From contig CAZCTN010000006.1 of assembly GCA_964501655.1 (NCBI GenBank), forward strand, positions 29,206-93,205: DNA of 64,000 nucleotides. Reading direction: 5' to 3'. The stretch's first letter is position 1; each line of letters starts with the position of its first letter. The notes under the pieces were generated by a model. That model did no database searches, had not been told where the DNA came from, and was given only the letters and a program-made list of their open reading frames with translations. Below are positions 1 through 9,732 of this stretch, one piece after another. Origin of the DNA: an uncultured Syntrophomonas sp. (lineage in GTDB: Bacteria; Bacillota; Syntrophomonadia; Syntrophomonadales; Syntrophomonadaceae). Position numbers and translations under genes: made by a program.

Positions 1-3000
1 TTTTTAACTCGCCATTCTCGGTAGTACGGGTTTCTCTTACGGCTTTGCGATCCGAGCTTAGATCATTGCTTTGTTTGATAATGGTATCGGCATCTTTTTT
101 ATATTCGATGGATTTGACCAAGTTGTAACTATAATCATAGCTGTATTTTGCTTCGTATTCGCTGTTGGGATAGCCGGACGCCAGGGGGCTGGTATAGGTA
201 AGTACATTCCCTTTGGAATCATATGTGTACTGCTGGCTGACTAGTTTTCCCATATTGCTATTGCTTCCATAGGTTTGAGTGGTTATTTTTTTTGGCAGTT
301 CAGTAGTAGTATACTCATACTGTATGGTTTTTCTGGTTTTGTTATTCTCGCTTACCGTCTCAGTCTTTTTTAAATGGGTTTGATAATCAAATTTATAACT
401 GCTTTTAGTCCCGAGAGCATTGGTTACGGTGGTGCTATAGTCACTGGTAGCATTCAGAAAACTGGCGCTATAGGTGTAGGTATCATTCAGGTAGATTTGT
501 TTGCCGTCTTTTTTATACATGCTTTTGATGCGGTAGTAGGTGGCGATACCGCCGTTAACGCTTTCATATTCGTTGGTGCAAACTAGTCCGGTGGGGTAGG
601 TTACTCTGATAAGGTTCTGGTAGTTCCGGGTTTGACCATCGTAGGTTCCGTTTGCGTTCTGGTAGGCATAGGTGGTCACCCGGCCCATTTGGTCTTCTTT
701 TTTTATTAAGTTCCCGCTGGTATTTAAGTTGAGGGCAATTACAGATTTATCGGGCAGGATGATGTTGTAAAAGTTGGCCGCTAGTTCGCAGTTGCATAAT
801 ATTCGGGTGGTCTGCCCGGCGCTGTCTACTATAGTTACTTCTTTATTATCGCCTATAGTTTTTTTACTGAAGGTTATGCGGTTGTCAAAGCGGTCGGTTA
901 TAGAGCTTATGTTTCCATCAGAGTCGAAGCTTTCTTTGCGCCCGTCGGCATAGGTCAGGGCGGTTACTTTGCTGGAGGATACAGTTACTTGTATATCACT
1001 TAGTTTGTAGCCTCCTAATTTGTAGATTTGATTCTCGTATACCAATGGATAGGTAGAACCATCGGTTAAGCGTATGTATTTTCCGTCTGTTCTATATAGT
1101 ATGCGGGTAAAATTTAATGACCACCCTCTCCCCAGGTATTTCTGAGGCCATTTGGCTTTTTGGTCGTTTCCGCTATAGGTTTCGGCCGAGTTGTAGACCA
1201 GCACCAGGTTAAGATCCAGGCCGTTTTTCCCAGGCATACTGGCCAGGGTTTCTTCGTATAGCAGGGCTCCGCTGTTAAGGTTTACGGTTTCATTTATGCC
1301 TGCCCGGTAGCCAAAGGGAGCACTTGGGTAGGGCTCTACCGCATCTTCATCTGTTGTCAAAGCTTTCAGTTCGTCTTCAAAATATATGTTCAGCTCTTCT
1401 TTTTTCTCTTGGATTAGCTCTTCGATTTCCTGAACCGTTTTTCCTGTGGTTTTCATGTATTTTATAATGGCTTCTTCATTCAAGTTGTAGCTTATAGCCA
1501 GGGCATGAATTAATTGCTGTTCTTGCGAACTATAATCTGCAAGATCATCGCTGCTGCTGTCTTTGGCAATTATACTGCTTATTTCCAAGCCCAAGGCCTG
1601 GGATGCTATGTAGGCATTTACAATGTTTCGAGCGGGGTAGCCTTTTTGAATGAGTTCTATGATAATGGCTTTATCTTTACTCAGGGTTTCAAATCTCAAT
1701 AAGTAGTCAGCAAGCAATTCCGCCTGCTCGGCTGCGGTTTTTTCGCTGGCAAAGACTAATCCCATTGCTTTAGCTTCTTCTAAAGTCAAGTTTAGGCTTT
1801 GCATGATTTTGGCTTTATATATGCTTTGTTTTAAGGTTAAGCCGGCCTCTTCACAAATCAGCAGGGCCGGTTCGGTTAGTTTTAAATGAAAGTAGAGCAG
1901 TTTTTTTTCATCTTCGTTTAGCTCCGAATATTTATTTTTGGTATTTAGCAGTTCTATTACTTCCTGGGGCAGGTAGGCAAAGTCTTCTTCCGGATTATCT
2001 ATTATCTCGTTATCTATGTTTTCCAATAAAGGAGTTATCGCTAATAAGCCATTTGCTATTTTGTTTACCAGGGTGTCTGCCTGGCTGGCGTTTTCTTTTA
2101 GGGCGAGGGCTATTCCTGTCGCGGTTGCATCTGGTTTTAGTCCTTTATATATTGCTGCTGAGGCTGTTGCATAGGCGGCTGCTAATGAGGTTCCGCTTCC
2201 ATAAGTATAGCTATTACCGGGACTGGTGCTGTATATGTTTTCACCGGGGGCTGCTATATGCACGTGGCTGCCGTAGCTGGATGTGGCGGCTAGTTCTCCT
2301 TGCTGGTTCATTGATGCTACCGAAATTATATTAGGCAGCTGATACGCAGCCGGATATATTTTACTGTCATCACCGGTATTCCCGGCAGCGCATATGAAGA
2401 GTATATTAGGGTTTTGCTCAATGGCGTCTTTGAGAGCCTGATTGTATTCGGGGCTTCCCCAGCTGCAGTTGATGATCGATATACCTTTGCTCCTGGCATA
2501 TTCTATAGCAGCTATGGCATCAGAGGTGTATCCGCTTCCGTTTTCTATAAATTTTAAGGGCATTATCCGGGCTTTTGTGGCTAGCCCCGCTATACCTTCG
2601 CCATCATGATTGGCACCTATTATTCCGGCTATTTGGGTTCCGTGAAACGAATCTCCTTCATCGAATACGCTGTCGTCTTCATTGTAAAAATCCCATCCGT
2701 TTACGATTCTGCCGGCTAGTTCGCTATGGCTGACATCGATTCCGGTATCTATTACCCCTACGGTTACAGGTTCCATGGCATCTATGATAGCCCACTTATC
2801 GCCTATGTTTAGGTCATAGGGCTGGTCTTCTGCTTGTTCCCCGGTACCACCTAATGCCCATTGCTGGTCAAGGTCCGGTTCCGAGGAGGGGTCCATGCTT
2901 TCCAACTGGTAATTGAACTGAACATATTCTACTTTCGGGTCTTTTTCCAGTTGTTCTTTGACTTCTGTGATATTTATATTTGAACCTACAGTTATTTCTG

Positions 3001-3355
3001 CTAGTTTTAACGCTTCATGTTCTTGTTTGACGCTTAGTCTGTTATCTAGCTTTTCCGGTTCCTTTACTGAGTGTTTCTCGGCCAGATCGCTATTTGCATT
3101 TTCTATGATTGTTTCTGCTATTTCAAGGTTTTTGTATTTTATTATTAACTGTGGTTTTTCTACCTTTGGTCGGTCACCCTCTTTATCTTGTTGGAGGTTA
3201 TCTTTGCTTTTTTGTTCTATACTATTTCCCTGGTCTACTGTTTCTACGGCGTATGTTTTAACCACATTTACTGGCAATGTGGTTAGAATCATCAATGTCA
3301 TCAATAGAACCGTTATACTTTTCCTCATTGCCCGTTTAATTCCCCGCATGTTCAT
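1..3355 (-). CDS. Secreted subtilisin-like (S8) serine peptidase fused to an RHS/YD-repeat protein; the 3' end runs off the left window edge
   Basis: Absent from the ORF track because it has no stop in the window. My manual minus-strand translation from ATG 3355 (GGAGAAGGAGA immediately upstream) stays open to position 1. Signal peptide MNMRGIKRAMRKSITVLLMTLMILTTLPVNVVKTYA. S8 triad motifs VGVIDTGID, SFHGTQIAG, GSGTSLAAAY. A helical linker follows, then an RHS-type entry LNSGALLYEETLASMPGKNGLDLNLVLVYNS and YD repeats (FDSDGNISSITDRFDNRITF, YTYDSKGNVLTYT). Confidence 0.8.
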   Translation of the reverse strand, partial: MNMRGIKRAMRKSITVLLMTLMILTTLPVNVVKTYAVETVDQGNSIEQKSKDNLQQDKEGDRPKVEKPQLIIKYKNLEIAETIIENANSDLAEKHSVKEPEKLDNRLSVKQEHEALKLAEITVGSNINITEVKEQLEKDPKVEYVQFNYQLESMDPSSEPDLDQQWALGGTGEQAEDQPYDLNIGDKWAIIDAMEPVTVGVIDTGIDVSHSELAGRIVNGWDFYNEDDSVFDEGDSFHGTQIAGIIGANHDGEGIAGLATKARIMPLKFIENGSGYTSDAIAAIEYARSKGISIINCSWGSPEYNQALKDAIEQNPNILFICAAGNTGDDSKIYPAAYQLPNIISVASMNQQGELAATSSYGSHVHIAAPGENIYSTSPGNSYTYGSGTSLAAAYATASAAIYKGLKPDATATGIALALKENASQADTLVNKIANGLLAITPLLENIDNEIIDNPEEDFAYLPQEVIELLNTKNKYSELNEDEKKLLYFHLKLTEPALLICEEAGLTLKQSIYKAKIMQSLNLTLEEAKAMGLVFASEKTAAEQAELLADYLLRFETLSKDKAIIIELIQKGYPARNIVNAYIASQALGLEISSIIAKDSSSDDLADYSSQEQQLIHALAISYNLNEEAIIKYMKTTGKTVQEIEELIQEKKEELNIYFEDELKALTTDEDAVEPYPSAPFGYRAGINETVNLNSGALLYEETLASMPGKNGLDLNLVLVYNSAETYSGNDQKAKWPQKYLGRGWSLNFTRILYRTDGKYIRLTDGSTYPLVYENQIYKLGGYKLSDIQVTVSSSKVTALTYADGRKESFDSDGNISSITDRFDNRITFSKKTIGDNKEVTIVDSAGQTTRILCNCELAANFYNIILPDKSVIALNLNTSGNLIKKEDQMGRVTTYAYQNANGTYDGQTRNYQNLIRVTYPTGLVCTNEYESVNGGIATYYRIKSMYKKDGKQIYLNDTYTYSASFLNATSDYSTTVTNALGTKSSYKFDYQTHLKKTETVSENNKTRKTIQYEYTTTELPKKITTQTYGSNSNMGKLVSQQYTYDSKGNVLTYTSPLASGYPNSEYEAKYSYDYSYNLVKSIEYKKDADTIIKQSNDLSSDRKAVRETRTTENGELK

Positions 3356-4758
3356 TCTCCTTCTCCTATGTTTTTCCGGTTATAATTCTTAGCCATCAAG
3401 TTGGACATTTGTTAAGGGTGTTAGACTTGTCATTCTATTTCAAATTGAATAATAGTAGTGCCGGTTGTTAAGGGTTTAAATTTGATGATGGTTAGAACTC
3501 CGGTCCAGGCTTTATCGGTATAACTGCTCTTATCTACTTTAAATCGTATGACTCCATTCTTATGACTGAGGATTTCTATCCCGGTTCCAGCTATTACTCC
3601 AGGTTGGGTGTCCTCTCCCCATGTCTGCGCTGCCAGGTCTGTTATTTGTATTTCTTCAGGGTTATATTTTAGGACATAGATCTTCCCCAGGTTATGGGGC
3701 ATATCACTAACATTAAGGCTCAGTATCTGGCTGTTATCTTGAACAATGGTCAGATTTTTTTCGGCTGCGCTTGCCCCCAGCAAAAATTCTTCTATAGTAC
3801 AATTGCTAACCTGCGCTTCTCCAGCCAACTGGCCTATTATTTTTCCACTTTCTGTTGTTCCGCTGATATTCTTAACGCCGGTTATGCTGCAGTTTTGTGC
3901 AGCCCCCCCATTCATATAGCCGATTAATGCTCCTACATTAGTGCTTCCGGTGATATCTACTTTATTCAGTTTTAAATCCTGGATTATTGCTTGATTGGTG
4001 TAGCCAAACAATCCTACATTGTCTGTTGTAGGCAGGTTTATCAGCAGGTTATTGATACTGTGACCATTGCCGTTAAAATTCCCTGTAAAGGGTGTTGTTG
4101 ATGTCCCTAGGGGCTGCAGGGATTGGTTTTGCAAATCTATATCCCGCTCCAAACGATAGCAGGCGCTCAGGTTTTGAGCTACAGCTAACAAATCGTTTGT
4201 GGTGTAGATCAGAATAGGATCTTCAAGGGTTCCGGCAGCTGCTGCCGGGACGCTGCTGCTAACAGTTAGTTGCGTGGACCAAGCGCTGGCAAAAGTTCCT
4301 ATTCGGCTTCTTACCCTGAAGTTATATTCTGTTTGAGGCATGAGTTGCTCTATCAGGCAGGTATGGCTATCGCTGGTAAATATCTCATTCTGAAAATCGA
4401 TCTCATAGGTTTCTGCCCCGGCTTGTGGATCCCAGGTCAGTTCTATGCAGGTTGCTGTCACCAATGATGCTGTTAGATTGCTTGGCGCCAATTGGGTATC
4501 GCTTAAGGTTGTAACGGTGATGGGCTCACTCCAGGGGCTTTTCATATTGTAGTTACGGGCTCGTATAATAAACTCATAGGTAGTATCAGGCTGCAATTCA
4601 TTGATTACAATTTCTGCTGTGTCAGAAGCAGCGATTTTGTCATTGTAACTGACTTCATATGCTTCTGCTGTTGCTTGATTATTCCAGGTTAATTTGACTG
4701 ATACCGGGGTAATATATTCTGCTGTTAACTGGATTGGCGCAACTAGATATATGGGTTG

Positions 4759-7191
4759 GCTTATCCCCTCTACATCTCTCAGATAGGGATAAGATCCGCT
4801 TTCTATGCCCCAGGTATTTATGAAGTCCCAGTTTTCATAGGTCGTTTCGGTCTTTAACTGGCTGCTGGTCTTGGCTTGTTCGACCGGGGTGCTTACTCCT
4901 GCTTTATCTAAATCAAAATAGCTGCTCACCATGCTTACCGTACTTGGTGCTATTCCATTTTTACTGCCGTTTCCACTTAGCTGACACAGGCTGTAGCTGT
5001 TAGTGATTTCCCTGCTTCCGCTGGTAGCGCTATATCCGATTATCCCACCTGCATAACTGCTTGCTAGTATTACTCCTGATGCAAAGCTGTTTTCTACTGC
5101 TAAAGCTCCGGTCGAAGAATTATACCCAATCAATCCCCCGGCTTGAGTACAACTGCTAGACCCAATTTCGCAATCGGCATAGCTGCTTTCTATTACGGTA
5201 CTTCCGGCTCCGCCTACACTTCCTACTAAACCGCCGGCATACCTCCCACTGCTTTTACCTACAGTTCCACTGGCGCAGCTGTTGCTTATCCTGCTTTCCT
5301 CGCTGGTGCTGCTGCTTATGGAGCCGATTAACCCCCCAGCATAATTACTACTGCTACTGTTTATGGTTCCCCGGGATTTACTCCCAGTTATCTCTCCTCC
5401 CAGGGTATTACGTCCTATTAAACCGCCTGCATAATTACCGCCATATACTTCCGCTGCCGCACTACTGTCTGCTATGTCTCCGCCTTTGTTAGATCCAACC
5501 AGGCCGCCTGCTGTTGATCCCGACACTATCCCGCTGCTGATATGGCAGTTTTCTACTCTCCCGCCTTCCATTTCTCCTATGAGACTGCCTATACAGCTGC
5601 CTCCCCTAACGTCTATATTCTCTACTCGTAAATTCTTTATTACCGCGTTGTTGCAACTGCCAAATAATCCTACATTGCCTGTCCCATTAACGCTTACGTT
5701 CTTTATCACATGATCTCTGCCATCAAAGCTGCCGCCGAATGGCACCGTCCCGGTTAAGGGCTCTATGGCTGCCATTTCTAAGTCTATATCGTTTATCATG
5801 GCAAAGTGTTTGCCCGGATTATTCTTTACTCCCAGCAATTGTTCTTTGTTCTCGATTATATATGGATCAGCTTCTGTTCCTGCTCCCTCATACTGTTCTT
5901 TGCCTATCTTGACTTGTTCCGGATTGTCCACTTCTCTTAAATATGAATAGGTAGCTCCTTCTTCTATATCCCAGATGTTTTCATAATCAAAGCCGTTTAC
6001 TTTCTTTATCAGCAGTTCCTTTTGGCTGGCATTATAGCAGGATGTTATATTGCTGCTGCTTAAGCTTCCTCCGCTAAGTACTCCTACGTTAAGATTCCCT
6101 TTTACTTCTCCTACGGTGTAGCTGGTCTTGAGGGTGCTGTCAATTCCTACCTGTCCTACTAAACCTCCTACATAGTTGTTTCCAGTTATGTTCCCCAGTG
6201 CAAAGCTGTTCTCTATATTTACTGTTTTGCTACTATGTCCTACTATACCCCCGGTATACTGGCTGGTTAATCCGTTGCTTTCTATATTCCCGGCAGCATA
6301 GCTCTGGGTAATCGTGGTAACTGACCCGCTTGTATCTCCTATTAGGCCCCCTGCTTTTCCTGCATCGCTTACCACCTTGCCGGTGACAAAACTTCTGGTT
6401 ATTGTGCCACTAAAATACCCGGCCAAGCCCCCGACAATATTTTCTCCTTCTACATCTATGCTGCTGCTGCTTCCTTCAATACCGTTACTCCCATATCCTA
6501 CTATTCCCCCTACATTATTCTTGCCTTTGATTAAGCCTGCCGCCGTAACTTGGCTGTTTATTACCGCGCCGCTGCTATTATATCCGACTAAACCTCCTAC
6601 ATACTGGCTGCTGCTGTTTATGTAGGCTTTGCCTTTTACTTCGCACCCTTCTATGCTTCCGCGCTATTCTCCTATCATTCCTCCTACTCTAATAGCTGAA
6701 TTAGAATTGGTCTCTATACTCAAGTCTCCGTTTACCTGGTTGTTCTTTACCGTACTGCTGTTACTGCGTCCTATCATCCCGCCTATGTATGATGTACCGC
6801 TGCTGGTATCGCTTTTTATTACTATGTTTCCTTCTACCGCGCAGTCTTCTACCTGCCCGTTGTTTATGTAGCCTATCAGTCCGCCTGCATTGCTCATTTT
6901 CCCTTCGCTGATATTCACATTCTCTATCGTTATGTTCTTTAATACGGCTCCATCTCCATAAGCAAATAATCCGGCATAGCTCTGGTTCTTTATGCTTAAA
7001 TTCTTTATCTTATGGCCATCCCCGTCCAAACTCCCTTTGAAGGCATTATTGTTTTCGCCTACCGGCTGCCAGTGCTGGTTCTCCAAGTCTATGTCGCTTC
7101 CTAATCTGTAATGGGCAGTTAAATTGTTCCTTATCCCTTGTAACTGCTCGGCGTTCTCTATTATATATGGGGCTTCTATGGTCCCCTGTCC
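4759..7191. repeat. Tandem duplication, copy 1 (2,433 bp)
   Basis: Matches 7207..9639 wherever I compared the printed lines. All ORF-track entries inside it recur at +2448 with identical translations (5474/7922, 5765/8213, 6314/8762, 6629/9077). Confidence 0.9.
6664..6666 (-). other. In-frame amber codon 2 (same position in the second repeat copy, 2,448 nt downstream)
   Basis: 9112 minus 2448 = 6664; identical context. Confidence 0.9.
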
Positions 7192-7206
7192 GGCTGGCGT
7201 CGTACC

Positions 7207-9639
7207 GCTTATCCCCTCTACATCTCTCAGATAGGGATAAGATCCGCTTTCTATGCCCCAGGTATTTATGAAGTCCCAGTTTTCATAGGTCGTTTCGGTC
7301 TTTAACTGGCTGCTGGTCTTGGCTTGTTCGACCGGGGTGCTTACTCCTGCTTTATCTAAATCAAAATAGCTGCTCACCATGCTTACCGTACTTGGTGCTA
7401 TTCCATTTTTACTGCCGTTTCCACTTAGCTGACACAGGCTGTAGCTGTTAGTGATTTCCCTGCTTCCGCTGGTAGCGCTATATCCGATTATCCCACCTGC
7501 ATAACTGCTTGCTAGTATTACTCCTGATGCAAAGCTGTTTTCTACTGCTAAAGCTCCGGTCGAAGAATTATACCCAATCAATCCCCCGGCTTGAGTACAA
7601 CTGCTAGACCCAATTTCGCAATCGGCATAGCTGCTTTCTATTACGGTACTTCCGGCTCCGCCTACACTTCCTACTAAACCGCCGGCATACCTCCCACTGC
7701 TTTTACCTACAGTTCCACTGGCGCAGCTGTTGCTTATCCTGCTTTCCTCGCTGGTGCTGCTGCTTATGGAGCCGATTAACCCCCCAGCATAATTACTACT
7801 GCTACTGTTTATGGTTCCCCGGGATTTACTCCCAGTTATCTCTCCTCCCAGGGTATTACGTCCTATTAAACCGCCTGCATAATTACCGCCATATACTTCC
7901 GCTGCCGCACTACTGTCTGCTATGTCTCCGCCTTTGTTAGATCCAACCAGGCCGCCTGCTGTTGATCCCGACACTATCCCGCTGCTGATATGGCAGTTTT
8001 CTACTCTCCCGCCTTCCATTTCTCCTATGAGACTGCCTATACAGCTGCCTCCCCTAACGTCTATATTCTCTACTCGTAAATTCTTTATTACCGCGTTGTT
8101 GCAACTGCCAAATAATCCTACATTGCCTGTCCCATTAACGCTTACGTTCTTTATCACATGATCTCTGCCATCAAAGCTGCCGCCGAATGGCACCGTCCCG
8201 GTTAAGGGCTCTATGGCTGCCATTTCTAAGTCTATATCGTTTATCATGGCAAAGTGTTTGCCCGGATTATTCTTTACTCCCAGCAATTGTTCTTTGTTCT
8301 CGATTATATATGGATCAGCTTCTGTTCCTGCTCCCTCATACTGTTCTTTGCCTATCTTGACTTGTTCCGGATTGTCCACTTCTCTTAAATATGAATAGGT
8401 AGCTCCTTCTTCTATATCCCAGATGTTTTCATAATCAAAGCCGTTTACTTTCTTTATCAGCAGTTCCTTTTGGCTGGCATTATAGCAGGATGTTATATTG
8501 CTGCTGCTTAAGCTTCCTCCGCTAAGTACTCCTACGTTAAGATTCCCTTTTACTTCTCCTACGGTGTAGCTGGTCTTGAGGGTGCTGTCAATTCCTACCT
8601 GTCCTACTAAACCTCCTACATAGTTGTTTCCAGTTATGTTCCCCAGTGCAAAGCTGTTCTCTATATTTACTGTTTTGCTACTATGTCCTACTATACCCCC
8701 GGTATACTGGCTGGTTAATCCGTTGCTTTCTATATTCCCGGCAGCATAGCTCTGGGTAATCGTGGTAACTGACCCGCTTGTATCTCCTATTAGGCCCCCT
8801 GCTTTTCCTGCATCGCTTACCACCTTGCCGGTGACAAAACTTCTGGTTATTGTGCCACTAAAATACCCGGCCAAGCCCCCGACAATATTTTCTCCTTCTA
8901 CATCTATGCTGCTGCTGCTTCCTTCAATACCGTTACTCCCATATCCTACTATTCCCCCTACATTATTCTTGCCTTTGATTAAGCCTGCCGCCGTAACTTG
9001 GCTGTTTATTACCGCGCCGCTGCTATTATATCCGACTAAACCTCCTACATACTGGCTGCTGCTGTTTATGTAGGCTTTGCCTTTTACTTCGCACCCTTCT
9101 ATGCTTCCGCGCTATTCTCCTATCATTCCTCCTACTCTAATAGCTGAATTAGAATTGGTCTCTATACTCAAGTCTCCGTTTACCTGGTTGTTCTTTACCG
9201 TACTGCTGTTACTGCGTCCTATCATCCCGCCTATGTATGATGTACCGCTGCTGGTATCGCTTTTTATTACTATGTTTCCTTCTACCGCGCAGTCTTCTAC
9301 CTGCCCGTTGTTTATGTAGCCTATCAGTCCGCCTGCATTGCTCATTTTCCCTTCGCTGATATTCACATTCTCTATCGTTATGTTCTTTAATACGGCTCCA
9401 TCTCCATAAGCAAATAATCCGGCATAGCTCTGGTTCTTTATGCTTAAATTCTTTATCTTATGGCCATCCCCGTCCAAACTCCCTTTGAAGGCATTATTGT
9501 TTTCGCCTACCGGCTGCCAGTGCTGGTTCTCCAAGTCTATGTCGCTTCCTAATCTGTAATGGGCAGTTAAATTGTTCCTTATCCCTTGTAACTGCTCGGC
9601 GTTCTCTATTATATATGGGGCTTCTATGGTCCCCTGTCC
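7207..9639. repeat. Tandem duplication, copy 2 (2,433 bp); period 2,448 bp = 816 codons
   Basis: See copy 1. The copies are joined by a unique 15-nt junction 7192..7206 (ggctggcgtcgtacc), which encodes GTTPA on the minus strand. Confidence 0.9.
9112..9114 (-). other. In-frame amber codon 1 (context GGMIGE-TAG-RGSIEGC, followed by C)
   Basis: cta at 9112..9114 on the plus strand; flanking codons read directly. Confidence 0.9.
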
Positions 9640-9732
9640 CATGCCAGGATAGGTCTGAGCATATGCCAAGCTGGCACTGCCGCTTATTATTAGTAACATA
9701 ATATTGATAATGGCCATAACTTTTTTTAGCAT
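9112..9732 (-). CDS. Only segment of the surface-protein gene with a real start: signal peptide plus first beta-helix module (206 aa), ending at the in-frame TAG
   Basis: ATG at 9732 preceded by AAAGGAAGAG; typical Sec signal ending AYA-Q; stop TAG at 9112..9114. Confidence 0.7.
   Translation of the reverse strand: MLKKVMAIINIMLLIISGSASLAYAQTYPGMGQGTIEAPYIIENAEQLQGIRNNLTAHYRLGSDIDLENQHWQPVGENNNAFKGSLDGDGHKIKNLSIKNQSYAGLFAYGDGAVLKNITIENVNISEGKMSNAGGLIGYINNGQVEDCAVEGNIVIKSDTSSGTSYIGGMIGRSNSSTVKNNQVNGDLSIETNSNSAIRVGGMIGE

Follow-up and report, generated by a model that had tools for sequence, protein, structure and literature searches.

A probable Sec-dependent RHS polymorphic-toxin cassette with a partner gene encoding a cohesin-like tail in an uncultured Syntrophomonas sp.

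Results

Organization of the locus

The window analysed here is a 64,000-nucleotide stretch of contig CAZCTN010000006.1 (assembly GCA_964501655.1). Three co-oriented genes lie at and beyond its left end: a giant gene that we refer to as the partner, an S8-RHS toxin gene and an immunity candidate. Their main features are as follows, in window coordinates unless a contig is named.

3430..9732, minus strand: partner gene frame, from translation; 2101 codons, two in-frame amber codons
4759..9639, minus strand: perfect tandem duplication in the partner gene; period 2448 nt (816 codons), exact copies 4759-7191 = 7207-9639
9112..9114, minus strand: in-frame TAG, codon 207, first copy of the duplicated unit
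6664..6666, minus strand: in-frame TAG, codon 1023, second copy; the same TAG as codon 207
4252..4758, minus strand: fn3 pair of the partner; Pfam fn3, E = 3.9e-21, two stretches
3433..3777, minus strand: cohesin-like C-terminal domain, 115 aa, from profile and fold; common to all partner proteins
3356..3429, minus strand: spacer between partner and toxin gene, 74 nt, with a strong RBS, AGGAGAAGGAGA, and without a terminator
1..3355, minus strand: 5' half of the S8-RHS toxin gene, which runs 3094 nt past the left edge of the window to G000:C6:26111
2084..2767, minus strand: Peptidase_S8 domain, residues 197-424; Pfam PF00082, E = 1.7e-45
1250..2062, minus strand: all-alpha repeat region that links S8 to the RHS entry, from alignment A2 and AF2
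1..1291, minus strand: DUF6531 and first YD/RHS repeats; DUF6531 (RHS entry) at 1055-1291, Pfam E = 1.1e-6
C6:25472-26074, outside the window: immunity candidate, 201 aa, 36 nt after the toxin gene, with two TM helices

The partner frame ends at a TGA (3430-3432) and the toxin gene starts at ATG 3355, with a second ATG at 3349. These ORF coordinates are in agreement with the initial annotation, which had placed the stop at 3430, the start at 3355 and a 74-nt gap without a hairpin between them. A search of the spacer for terminator-like sites found none, and its folding is weaker than that of shuffled sequence (MFE -8.7 kcal/mol, z = +1.98). The 3' half of the spacer is kept in a relative (L006). 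A strong terminator (10229-10199) precedes the partner gene's own upstream region.

The S8-RHS toxin and its candidate immunity protein

The same annotation had recognized a signal peptide, an S8 triad, a helical linker and an RHS entry with YD repeats in the second gene, all of which were confirmed, and had placed the toxin-bearing end beyond the left edge. Extending the sequence leftwards indeed recovered the RHS core, a 207-aa tail and the candidate immunity gene. A 100-N gap (C6:26802-26901) hides 358 nt of the toxin gene, including most of the core, in the window's own assembly; the core was read in P0002, the intact 2233-aa form of the protein. The order is signal peptide, S8, all-alpha linker, DUF6531, RHS cage, RHS core and 207-aa tail. 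The signal peptide was read directly from MNMRGIKRAMRKSITVLLMTLMILTTLPVNVVKTYA/VE, and residues 108-148 weakly match a Fervidolysin_NPro-like prodomain (E = 0.0075; 17.1 bits against a cut-off of 21). The catalytic set follows the subtilase order, with D201, H236, N324 (the oxyanion Asn) and S388 in P0002 numbering, and these columns are kept in 23 of 23 sampled S8-RHS proteins. Over the whole protein, RHS_repeat (PF05593) matches in 11 stretches (E = 7.4e-63) and TIGR01643 with E = 9e-47. The RHS-associated core (TIGR03696; 81.1 bits against a cut-off of 32.5; residues 1946-2026) carries a terminal PxxxxDPxG motif just before the toxin, ending ...NNPIRYIDPSGH, which is a predicted autoprotease motif ahead of the tail.

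The linker was modelled by AF2 as 14 helices, with pLDDT about 90 over residues 30-230, and gave neither a Pfam match nor a significant PDB fold match (TM < 0.2). It recurs in G131 and in the S8-less RHS protein of G071 (E = 5e-33 and 9e-19) and is absent from the P0042, P0053 and P0054 types of RHS protein. We considered the linker as a dockerin or X-module analogue and rejected the idea, since it is missing in some partner-linked RHS proteins; moreover, Foldseek returned only designed helical toroids (TM < 0.2), and a profile search of PDB sequences only weak HTH-like matches (E about 6e-3). Homology to the ~320-aa membrane-anchored helical ORFs of Paenibacillales cassettes was not significant either (hhalign probabilities 12% and 1%; a single hmmsearch match, E = 8.6e-4), and the two have only a short 'L..GY....I..AY' motif in common.

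The 207-aa tail that follows the core is Gly/Ser/Thr-rich. Searches for Pfam domains, PDB or long-protein homologues and structural matches found nothing for it, and any activity proposed for it is therefore a guess. The 201-aa protein encoded after it carries a bPH-like domain in addition to its two TM helices. Both recur together in a genome of another family (G254), where the toxin core at the end of an RHS protein is 46% identical and a homologue with 43% identity to the 201-aa protein is encoded ~80 nt after the RHS gene, indicating that they are likely to be a toxin/immunity pair. We take the 201-aa protein to be, most likely, the one that confers immunity to the tail, and its two TM helices and bPH-like domain suggest that the toxin acts at the membrane. 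Relatives carry other C-terminal toxins and other downstream genes, among them immunity genes that match the toxin, as in Paenibacillus (L010), where a ribonuclease tail (PF00545) is followed by a Barstar. Fragments of an IS91-type transposase and of an NTase are also found downstream in our genome.

A recent duplication and two amber codons in the partner gene

The partner frame encodes, in order, a signal peptide, repeated Peptidase_M26_N/GLUG modules, two fn3 domains, a further M26_N/GLUG module and the cohesin-like tail; its Pfam matches are Glug, Peptidase_M26_N and fn3. The second perfect copy of the 2448-nt unit makes up ~39% of the frame, and both amber codons lie within the duplication. 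An independent metagenome contig (L004) carries the partner in single-copy form, 1285 codons long, which has 0 mismatches and contains the same TAG. Another contig (L005) starts exactly 127 nt before the repeat end (window 4885 versus 4759). This start would fit a branch of the assembly graph at k = 127, in which case the junction of the duplication probably exists in the reads. The duplication is recent.

As the TAG at codon 207 has been copied into both units, the full-length partner is probably not made, and the giant surface protein of the initial annotation is not intact in this strain. Pfam found no wall-anchoring or surface-retention domain in the partner. It could be argued that read-through or recoding of the amber codons, by pyrrolysine, a suppressor or an alternative code, yields a 2100-aa protein, since the frame stays open for 1894 codons past the first TAG. 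However, this genome uses TAG as a normal stop, which ends 460 of 1712 long ORFs (27%), PylS had no match above the cut-off in the 99.85%-complete genome and no tRNA with a CUA anticodon was found. We therefore rejected recoding, which we regard as highly improbable.

A different matter is whether the pair works in this strain at all. The partner may be a fresh pseudogene, with only toxin and immunity protein functional, or the locus may be decaying. The TAG is present in each copy of the repeat and also in metagenome contigs that are independent of this assembly, the genome offers neither Pyl machinery nor a suppressor tRNA, transposase and NTase fragments lie downstream, and there are RHS relics elsewhere in this genome. 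On the other hand, the other 1894 partner codons contain no further stops or frameshifts and both P0002 and L004 have an intact RHS gene, so any inactivation must have happened very recently; read-through at a low level or heterogeneity of the strain is also possible. On balance, we consider loss of function in this strain slightly favoured. This judgement concerns the state of the locus here, and its likelihood overlaps that of our preferred interpretation, a toxin cassette whose partner has probably been inactivated.

The partner tail resembles type II cohesins

The initial annotation had described the partner's C-terminus as cohesin-like, which is supported by profile and, more tentatively, by fold. 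The tail-alignment profile matched type II cohesins among PDB sequences (3l8q, E = 1.4e-4). An AF2 model of the tail, built on 6 sequences, reached a pLDDT of 81.8, and the top 11 Foldseek matches to it were all type II cohesins with probability 1.0, although TM was only 0.5-0.6, with an rmsd of about 5.5 Å and E of 1e-3 to 1e-2. Pfam Cohesin (PF00963) did not match the window's tail even at E <= 10, and matched the tails of two out of six relatives weakly (best E = 0.0045). As for dockerin-bearing partners, for which a search had been suggested, PF00404 found none in the 99.85%-complete genome, and neither the genome nor the partner-linked RHS proteins showed a dockerin Ca-loop motif. With no Pfam Cohesin match in the whole genome either, we rejected a canonical cohesin-dockerin system.

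The tail domain is widespread. A word-indexed search with it found 3 proteins, and overall it occurs in 1117 cluster representatives, typically in proteins of 1000-2400 aa. Among the best 150 of these 1117 representatives, it lies at the extreme C-terminus in almost all. This position would also suit a C-terminal sorting or processing tag, following the logic of the T9SS C-terminal domain, that would be recognized and perhaps removed by S8 or other cassette proteins as the partner is exported or matured, and a protease is indeed fused to or adjoins many linked RHS genes. Nevertheless, fifteen Paenibacillales cassettes and G071 have the tail without S8, no dedicated export machinery is encoded nearby, and profile and fold both point to type II cohesins, which are protein-binding modules. 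We thus find a tag unlikely and favour a docking role for the tail.

The pairing of partner and RHS genes is conserved

The two genes had been proposed to form a unit, and orthologous or analogous pairs in distant relatives support this. Starting from S8-RHS relatives, we found a tail-bearing giant protein encoded 12-81 nt upstream in five of six assessable loci (L006, L008 from Anaerotignum propionicum, L009, L010 and L012). The partner N-termini carry GLUG in close relatives and RCC1 propellers in distant ones. A tail search of 400 same-phylum genomes gave three matches, all with an S8 and/or RHS gene directly downstream. Among Paenibacillales tail loci, a same-strand giant RHS gene follows in 17 of 18, the 18th running off its contig; many of these loci are probably orthologous, so that the counts overstate their independence. 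The pairing is thus seen in Clostridia and Paenibacillales at nearly every locus examined, with RHS proteins that have or lack S8. All partner-linked RHS proteins share just two elements, the DUF6531-type entry and the cage.

We also weighed whether the adjacency is incidental, the upstream gene encoding an adhesin-like surface protein that works independently of the toxin. A strong terminator sets off an upstream region of the partner's own, the interaction between tail and RHS protein is a proposed one, and one genome with an S8-RHS protein (Wukongibacter G402) lacks any tail-domain protein. However, the same tail is found directly upstream of RHS genes in three architectures and two phylum-level groups despite differing partner N-termini, RHS N-termini and toxins, and the spacer is short and terminator-free. 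In addition, the second RHS gene of our genome (C2:113458-119058) has an M26_N/GLUG module fused directly to DUF6531-RHS. In view of these observations, an incidental arrangement seems very hard to credit.

Discussion

Our results indicate that the region is probably a Sec-dependent RHS polymorphic-toxin cassette composed of partner, S8-RHS toxin and immunity candidate, with the partner probably inactivated in this strain. Where the system is intact, the variable N-terminal repeat modules of the partner (here of the M26_N/GLUG beta-solenoid type, and fn3) would probably bind a surface, and the cohesin-like tail would probably serve to dock the partner, either onto the RHS protein or onto some component of its complex. 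S8 would most likely mature the exported assembly, either by cutting the N-terminal part off the cage or by processing the partner. In the strain studied here, the RHS toxin may work alone or the system may be freshly crippled. Two roles suggested initially have to be toned down. The adhesin as a tether finds no support, given a partner with no known anchor and a genome with no dockerin, and the protease as activator was overstated, since similar cassettes exist without S8.

More tentatively, the tail domain could define a large unnamed family of giant secreted proteins (~1100 cluster representatives, with RCC1 propellers, GLUG solenoids or fn3/Ig arrays as N-termini) that would be dedicated targeting or docking subunits of Firmicutes Sec-exported RHS toxins. 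In such a Tc-like 'A + BC' arrangement, the tail would use a new ligand on the RHS entry region instead of a cohesin-dockerin contact; we consider this plausible, although the odds are somewhat against it.

To our knowledge, WapA is the sole studied model of Gram-positive Sec-exported RHS toxins, and how such toxins leave the wall, find targets and transfer their cargo is largely obscure. The pairing bears on this question. A conserved partner with swappable binding modules and a constant tail offers a concrete handle, namely one small domain to probe for binding, and naturally occurring variants that have or lack the protease or the helical linker are available for comparison. Genome annotation would also gain a new marker for RHS toxin loci, and the locus supplies an unnamed family of likely toxin/immunity pairs. 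The locus of this particular strain mainly exemplifies a partner gene that was duplicated internally and probably knocked out, both very recently.

With respect to known systems, Tc (ABC) toxin complexes combine a TcA subunit for targeting and translocation with a TcB-TcC RHS cocoon that encloses an autoproteolytically released toxin. By analogy, the cassette may share the logic of a separate giant surface-binding subunit beside an RHS cage; no TcA, SpvB or TcB-type domains were found by Pfam. The best profile and fold matches of the tail are type II cohesins of cellulosomal scaffoldins (A. cellulolyticus ScaB, 3l8q/1qzn; C. thermocellum, 5g5d). Compared with these (140-170 aa), the tail is shorter (about 105-115 aa); it also differs in failing Pfam Cohesin, in occurring only C-terminally in non-cellulosomal proteins and in a genome without dockerin.

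The initial annotation did not recognize an S8 domain on an RHS protein, paired with a cohesin-tailed gene, as a characterized arrangement. The fusion as such is known: S8-RHS proteins are abundant in Firmicutes, and of the best 120 long homologues at least 60 are of this kind. A catalogue of Sec-type RHS toxins already names subtilisin/Peptidase S8 among their processing proteases, one example being its occurrence with Ntox32 (Zhang, de Souza, Anantharaman, Iyer and Aravind, 2012; PMC3482391). The pairing itself appears undescribed, as our literature search found no paper describing it. The Sec-dependent ('T2SS-type') RHS toxins of that catalogue resemble the cassette in having a signal peptide and RHS repeats, a C-terminal toxin that varies and an immunity gene downstream of it; in contrast, cohesin, dockerin or an RCC1/GLUG partner gene are not mentioned there, and the toxin tail found here matches no named toxin family. 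S8-PTS (Li, Tan and Zhang, 2022; PMC9424270) likewise combine an S8 subtilase, proposed to release the toxin, with a polymorphic toxin/immunity pair in Gram-positive bacteria. However, they have a separate single-domain S8 gene and a BetaH toxin without an RHS cage, whereas the S8 domain of the cassette is part of the RHS protein itself; with its S8-linker-DUF6531-RHS architecture, the cassette falls outside this class.

In turn, WapA of Bacillus subtilis and Streptococcus suis (PMC12704120), a wall-associated RHS toxin of Gram-positive bacteria, has in common with the cassette a Sec signal, a DUF6531-RHS cage, a C-terminal toxin after the core, a cognate immunity gene and accessory genes directly upstream. 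WapA carries its own wall-binding repeats (CWB/LysM), domains for which Pfam found no match in the partner or the RHS protein, and its accessories are SecF-like and SrtB, whereas the cassette described here has S8, a helical linker and a giant cohesin-tailed accessory.

The S8-RHS gene and its candidate toxin/immunity pair

The initial annotation had described a gene for a giant secreted protein with a cohesin-like tail (hereafter the partner), followed in the same orientation by an S8 peptidase-RHS fusion. Its domains and gene layout were right, but the first gene turned out to be interrupted by two TAG codons and half-duplicated. The features of the locus are listed below in window coordinates, except where contig C6 of the source genome is named; the window corresponds to C6:29206-93205.

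10229-10199, minus strand, strong intrinsic-terminator-like hairpin of 14 pairs, where the nuo operon ends, ahead of the partner gene
9732 (ATG) to 3430-3432 (TGA), minus strand, partner frame, 2101 codons in a single reading frame
9112-9114, minus strand, in-frame TAG at codon 207, from translation of the partner frame
6664-6666, minus strand, in-frame TAG at codon 1023, from translation of the partner frame
4759-7191 and 7207-9639, minus strand, exact copies of a perfect tandem duplication with a period of 2448 nt (816 codons)
3356-3429, minus strand, spacer of 74 nt between the partner and S8-RHS genes, with a strong RBS
3355, past the window edge to C6:26111, minus strand, S8-RHS gene, followed by contig extension beyond the window

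Leftward extension of the contig, which the initial annotation had proposed as a check, recovered the RHS core, a 207-aa toxin tail and a 201-aa candidate immunity ORF. A 100-N scaffold gap outside the window (C6:26802-26901) stands in for 358 nt of the RHS core, and the intact form of the protein (P0002, 2233 aa) comes from metagenome contigs. It begins with a signal peptide and a weakly matching Fervidolysin-type prodomain, followed by a Peptidase_S8 domain (E = 1.7e-45) in which Asp, His, Asn and Ser are all present. A linker of ~250 aa, all-alpha in a confident AF2 model for which no fold match was found, then leads to DUF6531, RHS repeats (E = 7e-63) and Rhs_assc_core, which scores 81 bits (cut-off 32.5) and ends in ...DPSGH. 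The C-terminal 207-aa toxin tail is rich in Gly/Ser/Thr and had no homologue in Pfam, PDB or long-protein searches.

The 201-aa ORF lies 36 nt downstream of the S8-RHS gene and its product has a pair of TM helices plus a weak bPH/PuhB-like region. Among 400 same-phylum genomes, one from a different family (G254) carries an RHS C-terminus with a 46%-identical toxin core and, ~80 nt after it, a homologue (43% identity) of the 201-aa protein. In relatives, toxin tails vary and the downstream genes vary too; a Paenibacillus locus (L010), for example, combines a ribonuclease tail with Barstar downstream. By these sequence comparisons, the tail and the 201-aa protein behave as expected of a polymorphic toxin/immunity pair, and the membrane-embedded nature of the candidate immunity protein suggests that the toxin may be membrane-directed. 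Past the 201-aa ORF come a transposase fragment of the IS91 family (Y2_Tnp) and a nucleotidyltransferase ORF that is truncated (L001:11454-12476, equal to C6:24053-25075), a layout shared by the metagenome contigs. Over 18 kb, all 21 alignment columns that differ between the source genome and the metagenome contig L004 (19 mismatches, 2 gaps) fall within ~157 nt (L004:16075-16231), right after the N gap, where core and toxin join (aa 2025-2077). This cluster could mark a patch of recombination or a mixture of strains at the toxin-swap point.

The fusion of S8 to RHS, part of a paired arrangement that the initial annotation did not recognise as characterised, is not unusual and is already known. 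Searching with residues 1-690, we found S8 and YD repeats combined in at least 60 of the best 120 long homologues. Such proteins occur across Clostridia and Paenibacillus and between them bear many named toxin tails, and the catalytic residues are kept in all 23 that were aligned. In Zhang et al. 2012 (PMC3482391), subtilisin is one of the processing proteases given for polymorphic toxins of the Sec type that contain RHS repeats; an experimental study of the fusion was not found in the literature.

The partner gene is interrupted and carries a tandem duplication

The partner frame encodes a signal peptide, repeated Peptidase_M26_N/GLUG modules, two fn3 domains, another M26_N/GLUG module and a 115-aa tail; no wall anchor was found in the protein. 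The two TAG codons occupy the equivalent position in each copy of the 2448-nt duplication. In the source genome (3.06 Mb, 64 contigs, 99.85% complete), TAG terminates 460 of 1712 long ORFs, PylS had no match above the cut-off, and ARAGORN found no tRNA with a CUA anticodon. TAG is therefore a normal stop, and the partner gene is not intact. Full-length partner is probably not made in this strain; any inactivation is recent, judging from the 1894 codons that are still open.

The independent contig L004 has the partner in a single-copy form of 1285 codons, with the TAG shared and 0 mismatches. A metagenome contig from another sample, L005, starts at window position 4885, exactly 127 nt ahead of the repeat end at 4759, which we interpret as a branch in a de Bruijn graph built with k = 127; the duplication junction would thus have been present in the reads rather than made by the assembler. 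This indirectly supports a real tandem duplication.

The 74-nt spacer contains no terminator-like site and is less structured than shuffled sequence in a folding comparison. The terminator-like hairpin ahead of the partner gene indicates that the toxin cassette starts its own transcription unit.

The partner ends in a compact cohesin-like domain

Although the 115-aa tail had no match in Pfam, the cohesin-like character ascribed to it in the initial annotation was largely borne out by profile and structure searches. A six-sequence profile run against PDB sequences matched type II cohesins best (3l8q, E = 1.4e-4; several more at ~5e-3). The AF2 model is a nine-strand beta domain (pLDDT 81.8), and its top 11 Foldseek matches were all type II cohesins, with a probability of 1.0 and a TM of only 0.5-0.6. 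Pfam Cohesin matched weakly in 2 of 6 relatives' tails and not in the window's own. The profile and the model thus largely support a cohesin-like fold.

Dockerin-bearing partners, for which the initial annotation had suggested a search, did not turn up. Since neither Pfam Cohesin nor Pfam Dockerin is found in the source genome, dockerin Ca-loop motifs are absent from the linked RHS proteins and TM stays at 0.5-0.6, we call the tail a compact cohesin-like domain, outside the cellulosomal cohesin-dockerin system. The S8-RHS linker was considered as a dockerin-like element and rejected; it is also not universal among linked RHS proteins. The tail domain family is large: a search of 1.84 billion sequences gave 1117 representatives (E <= 1e-3). 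The proteins that carry it are 1000-2400 aa long, and in nearly all of them the domain forms the very C-terminus.

The partner is conserved upstream of RHS genes

The pairing claimed in the initial annotation is real and recurs in relatives. At L006 (toxin 66% identical), an orthologous partner C-terminus, 68% identical, lies 81 nt upstream, and in Anaerotignum propionicum (L008, toxin 42% identical) a 37%-identical one lies 41 nt upstream. At the distant S8-RHS loci L009, L010 and L012, a 1730-2245-aa RCC1-propeller and fn3 protein with the same C-terminal tail domain is encoded 12-47 nt upstream. The locus in Wukongibacter (L011) has no partner, and the tail domain is absent from that whole genome; L007 ends 114 nt upstream of its S8-RHS gene.

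Sampled genome by genome, the tail domain is rare, occurring in 3 of the 400 same-phylum genomes, in each of which an S8 and/or RHS gene follows directly; the RHS protein of one, G071, has the helical linker and no S8. Among Paenibacillales it occurs in 19 of 301 sampled genomes, and 17 of the 18 loci fetched have a giant same-strand RHS gene downstream (the remaining one runs off its contig), although many paired loci are related by descent and the counts are not independent. At two of these 17, an S8-RHS gene is adjacent to the tail-bearing gene. The other 15 encode, in this order, one to three tail-bearing fn3/RCC1 proteins, one or two middle ORFs and an RHS protein without S8. Complete copies of this RHS protein have roughly 3200-3400 aa, and contig ends truncate a few. 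The middle ORFs (L029-L044; roughly 300-370 aa) have N-terminal TM segments and helical repeats and form two families without a Pfam match; their similarity to the S8-RHS linker was not significant.

A second RHS gene of the source genome (C2:113458-119058; L023:5456-11032, minus strand; 1858 aa) fuses an M26_N/GLUG module directly to DUF6531-RHS, so that a domain type of the partner is joined to the cage in the manner of a Rosetta stone. The pairing is kept even though the toxins and the N-termini of both the partners and the RHS proteins all vary, which argues for a functional association.

Several further arrangements were observed. Downstream of the second RHS gene lies another whose 746-aa Big_7/Big_5 product carries two RHS repeats. 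An S8-RHS partner in the comparison genome G131 (L020:4481-9156) has Big_2, its own Peptidase_S8 and RCC1 propellers before the cohesin-like tail, and is seemingly split over two overlapping frames, which could reflect a frameshift or a sequencing error. The source genome also holds two RHS relics: C1:66653-67135 (161 aa, 94% identical to the mid S8-RHS cage, with an internal stop) and C16:4046-4411 (an orphan 122-aa RHS core fragment).

A proposed two-component RHS toxin cassette and its relation to known systems

The locus is best read as an RHS toxin cassette with two components. The comparisons establish the gene structures, their conservation and the joint occurrence of toxin and immunity genes; what the tail docks to, what the protease cuts and where the toxin acts are inferences. 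The partner would combine variable surface-binding modules with one constant cohesin-like tail, which may contact the RHS entry region; DUF6531 plus the cage is all that every one of the linked RHS proteins shares. The S8 domain would mature the exported assembly, its presumed substrate, and the cage would free the toxin tail via the core autoprotease. The 201-aa membrane protein would protect the producer, and the toxin may act at the membrane. The roles suggested in the initial annotation, the adhesin as tether and the protease as activator, are hypothetical.

We found no description of this cassette in the literature on Rhs with cohesin, cohesin-like or RCC1 domains, and Zhang et al. 2012 (PMC3482391) mention no cohesin, dockerin or RCC1 partner. 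A 2026 survey reports cohesin and dockerin domains within some PT-TG toxins. The S8-PTS system (Li et al. 2022, PMC9424270) differs in combining a stand-alone S8 gene with a BetaH toxin. As S. suis WapA (PMC12704120) illustrates, RHS toxins of Gram-positive bacteria can require accessory genes encoded upstream; the WapA accessories, SecF-like and SrtB, are of another kind than the cohesin-tailed partner.
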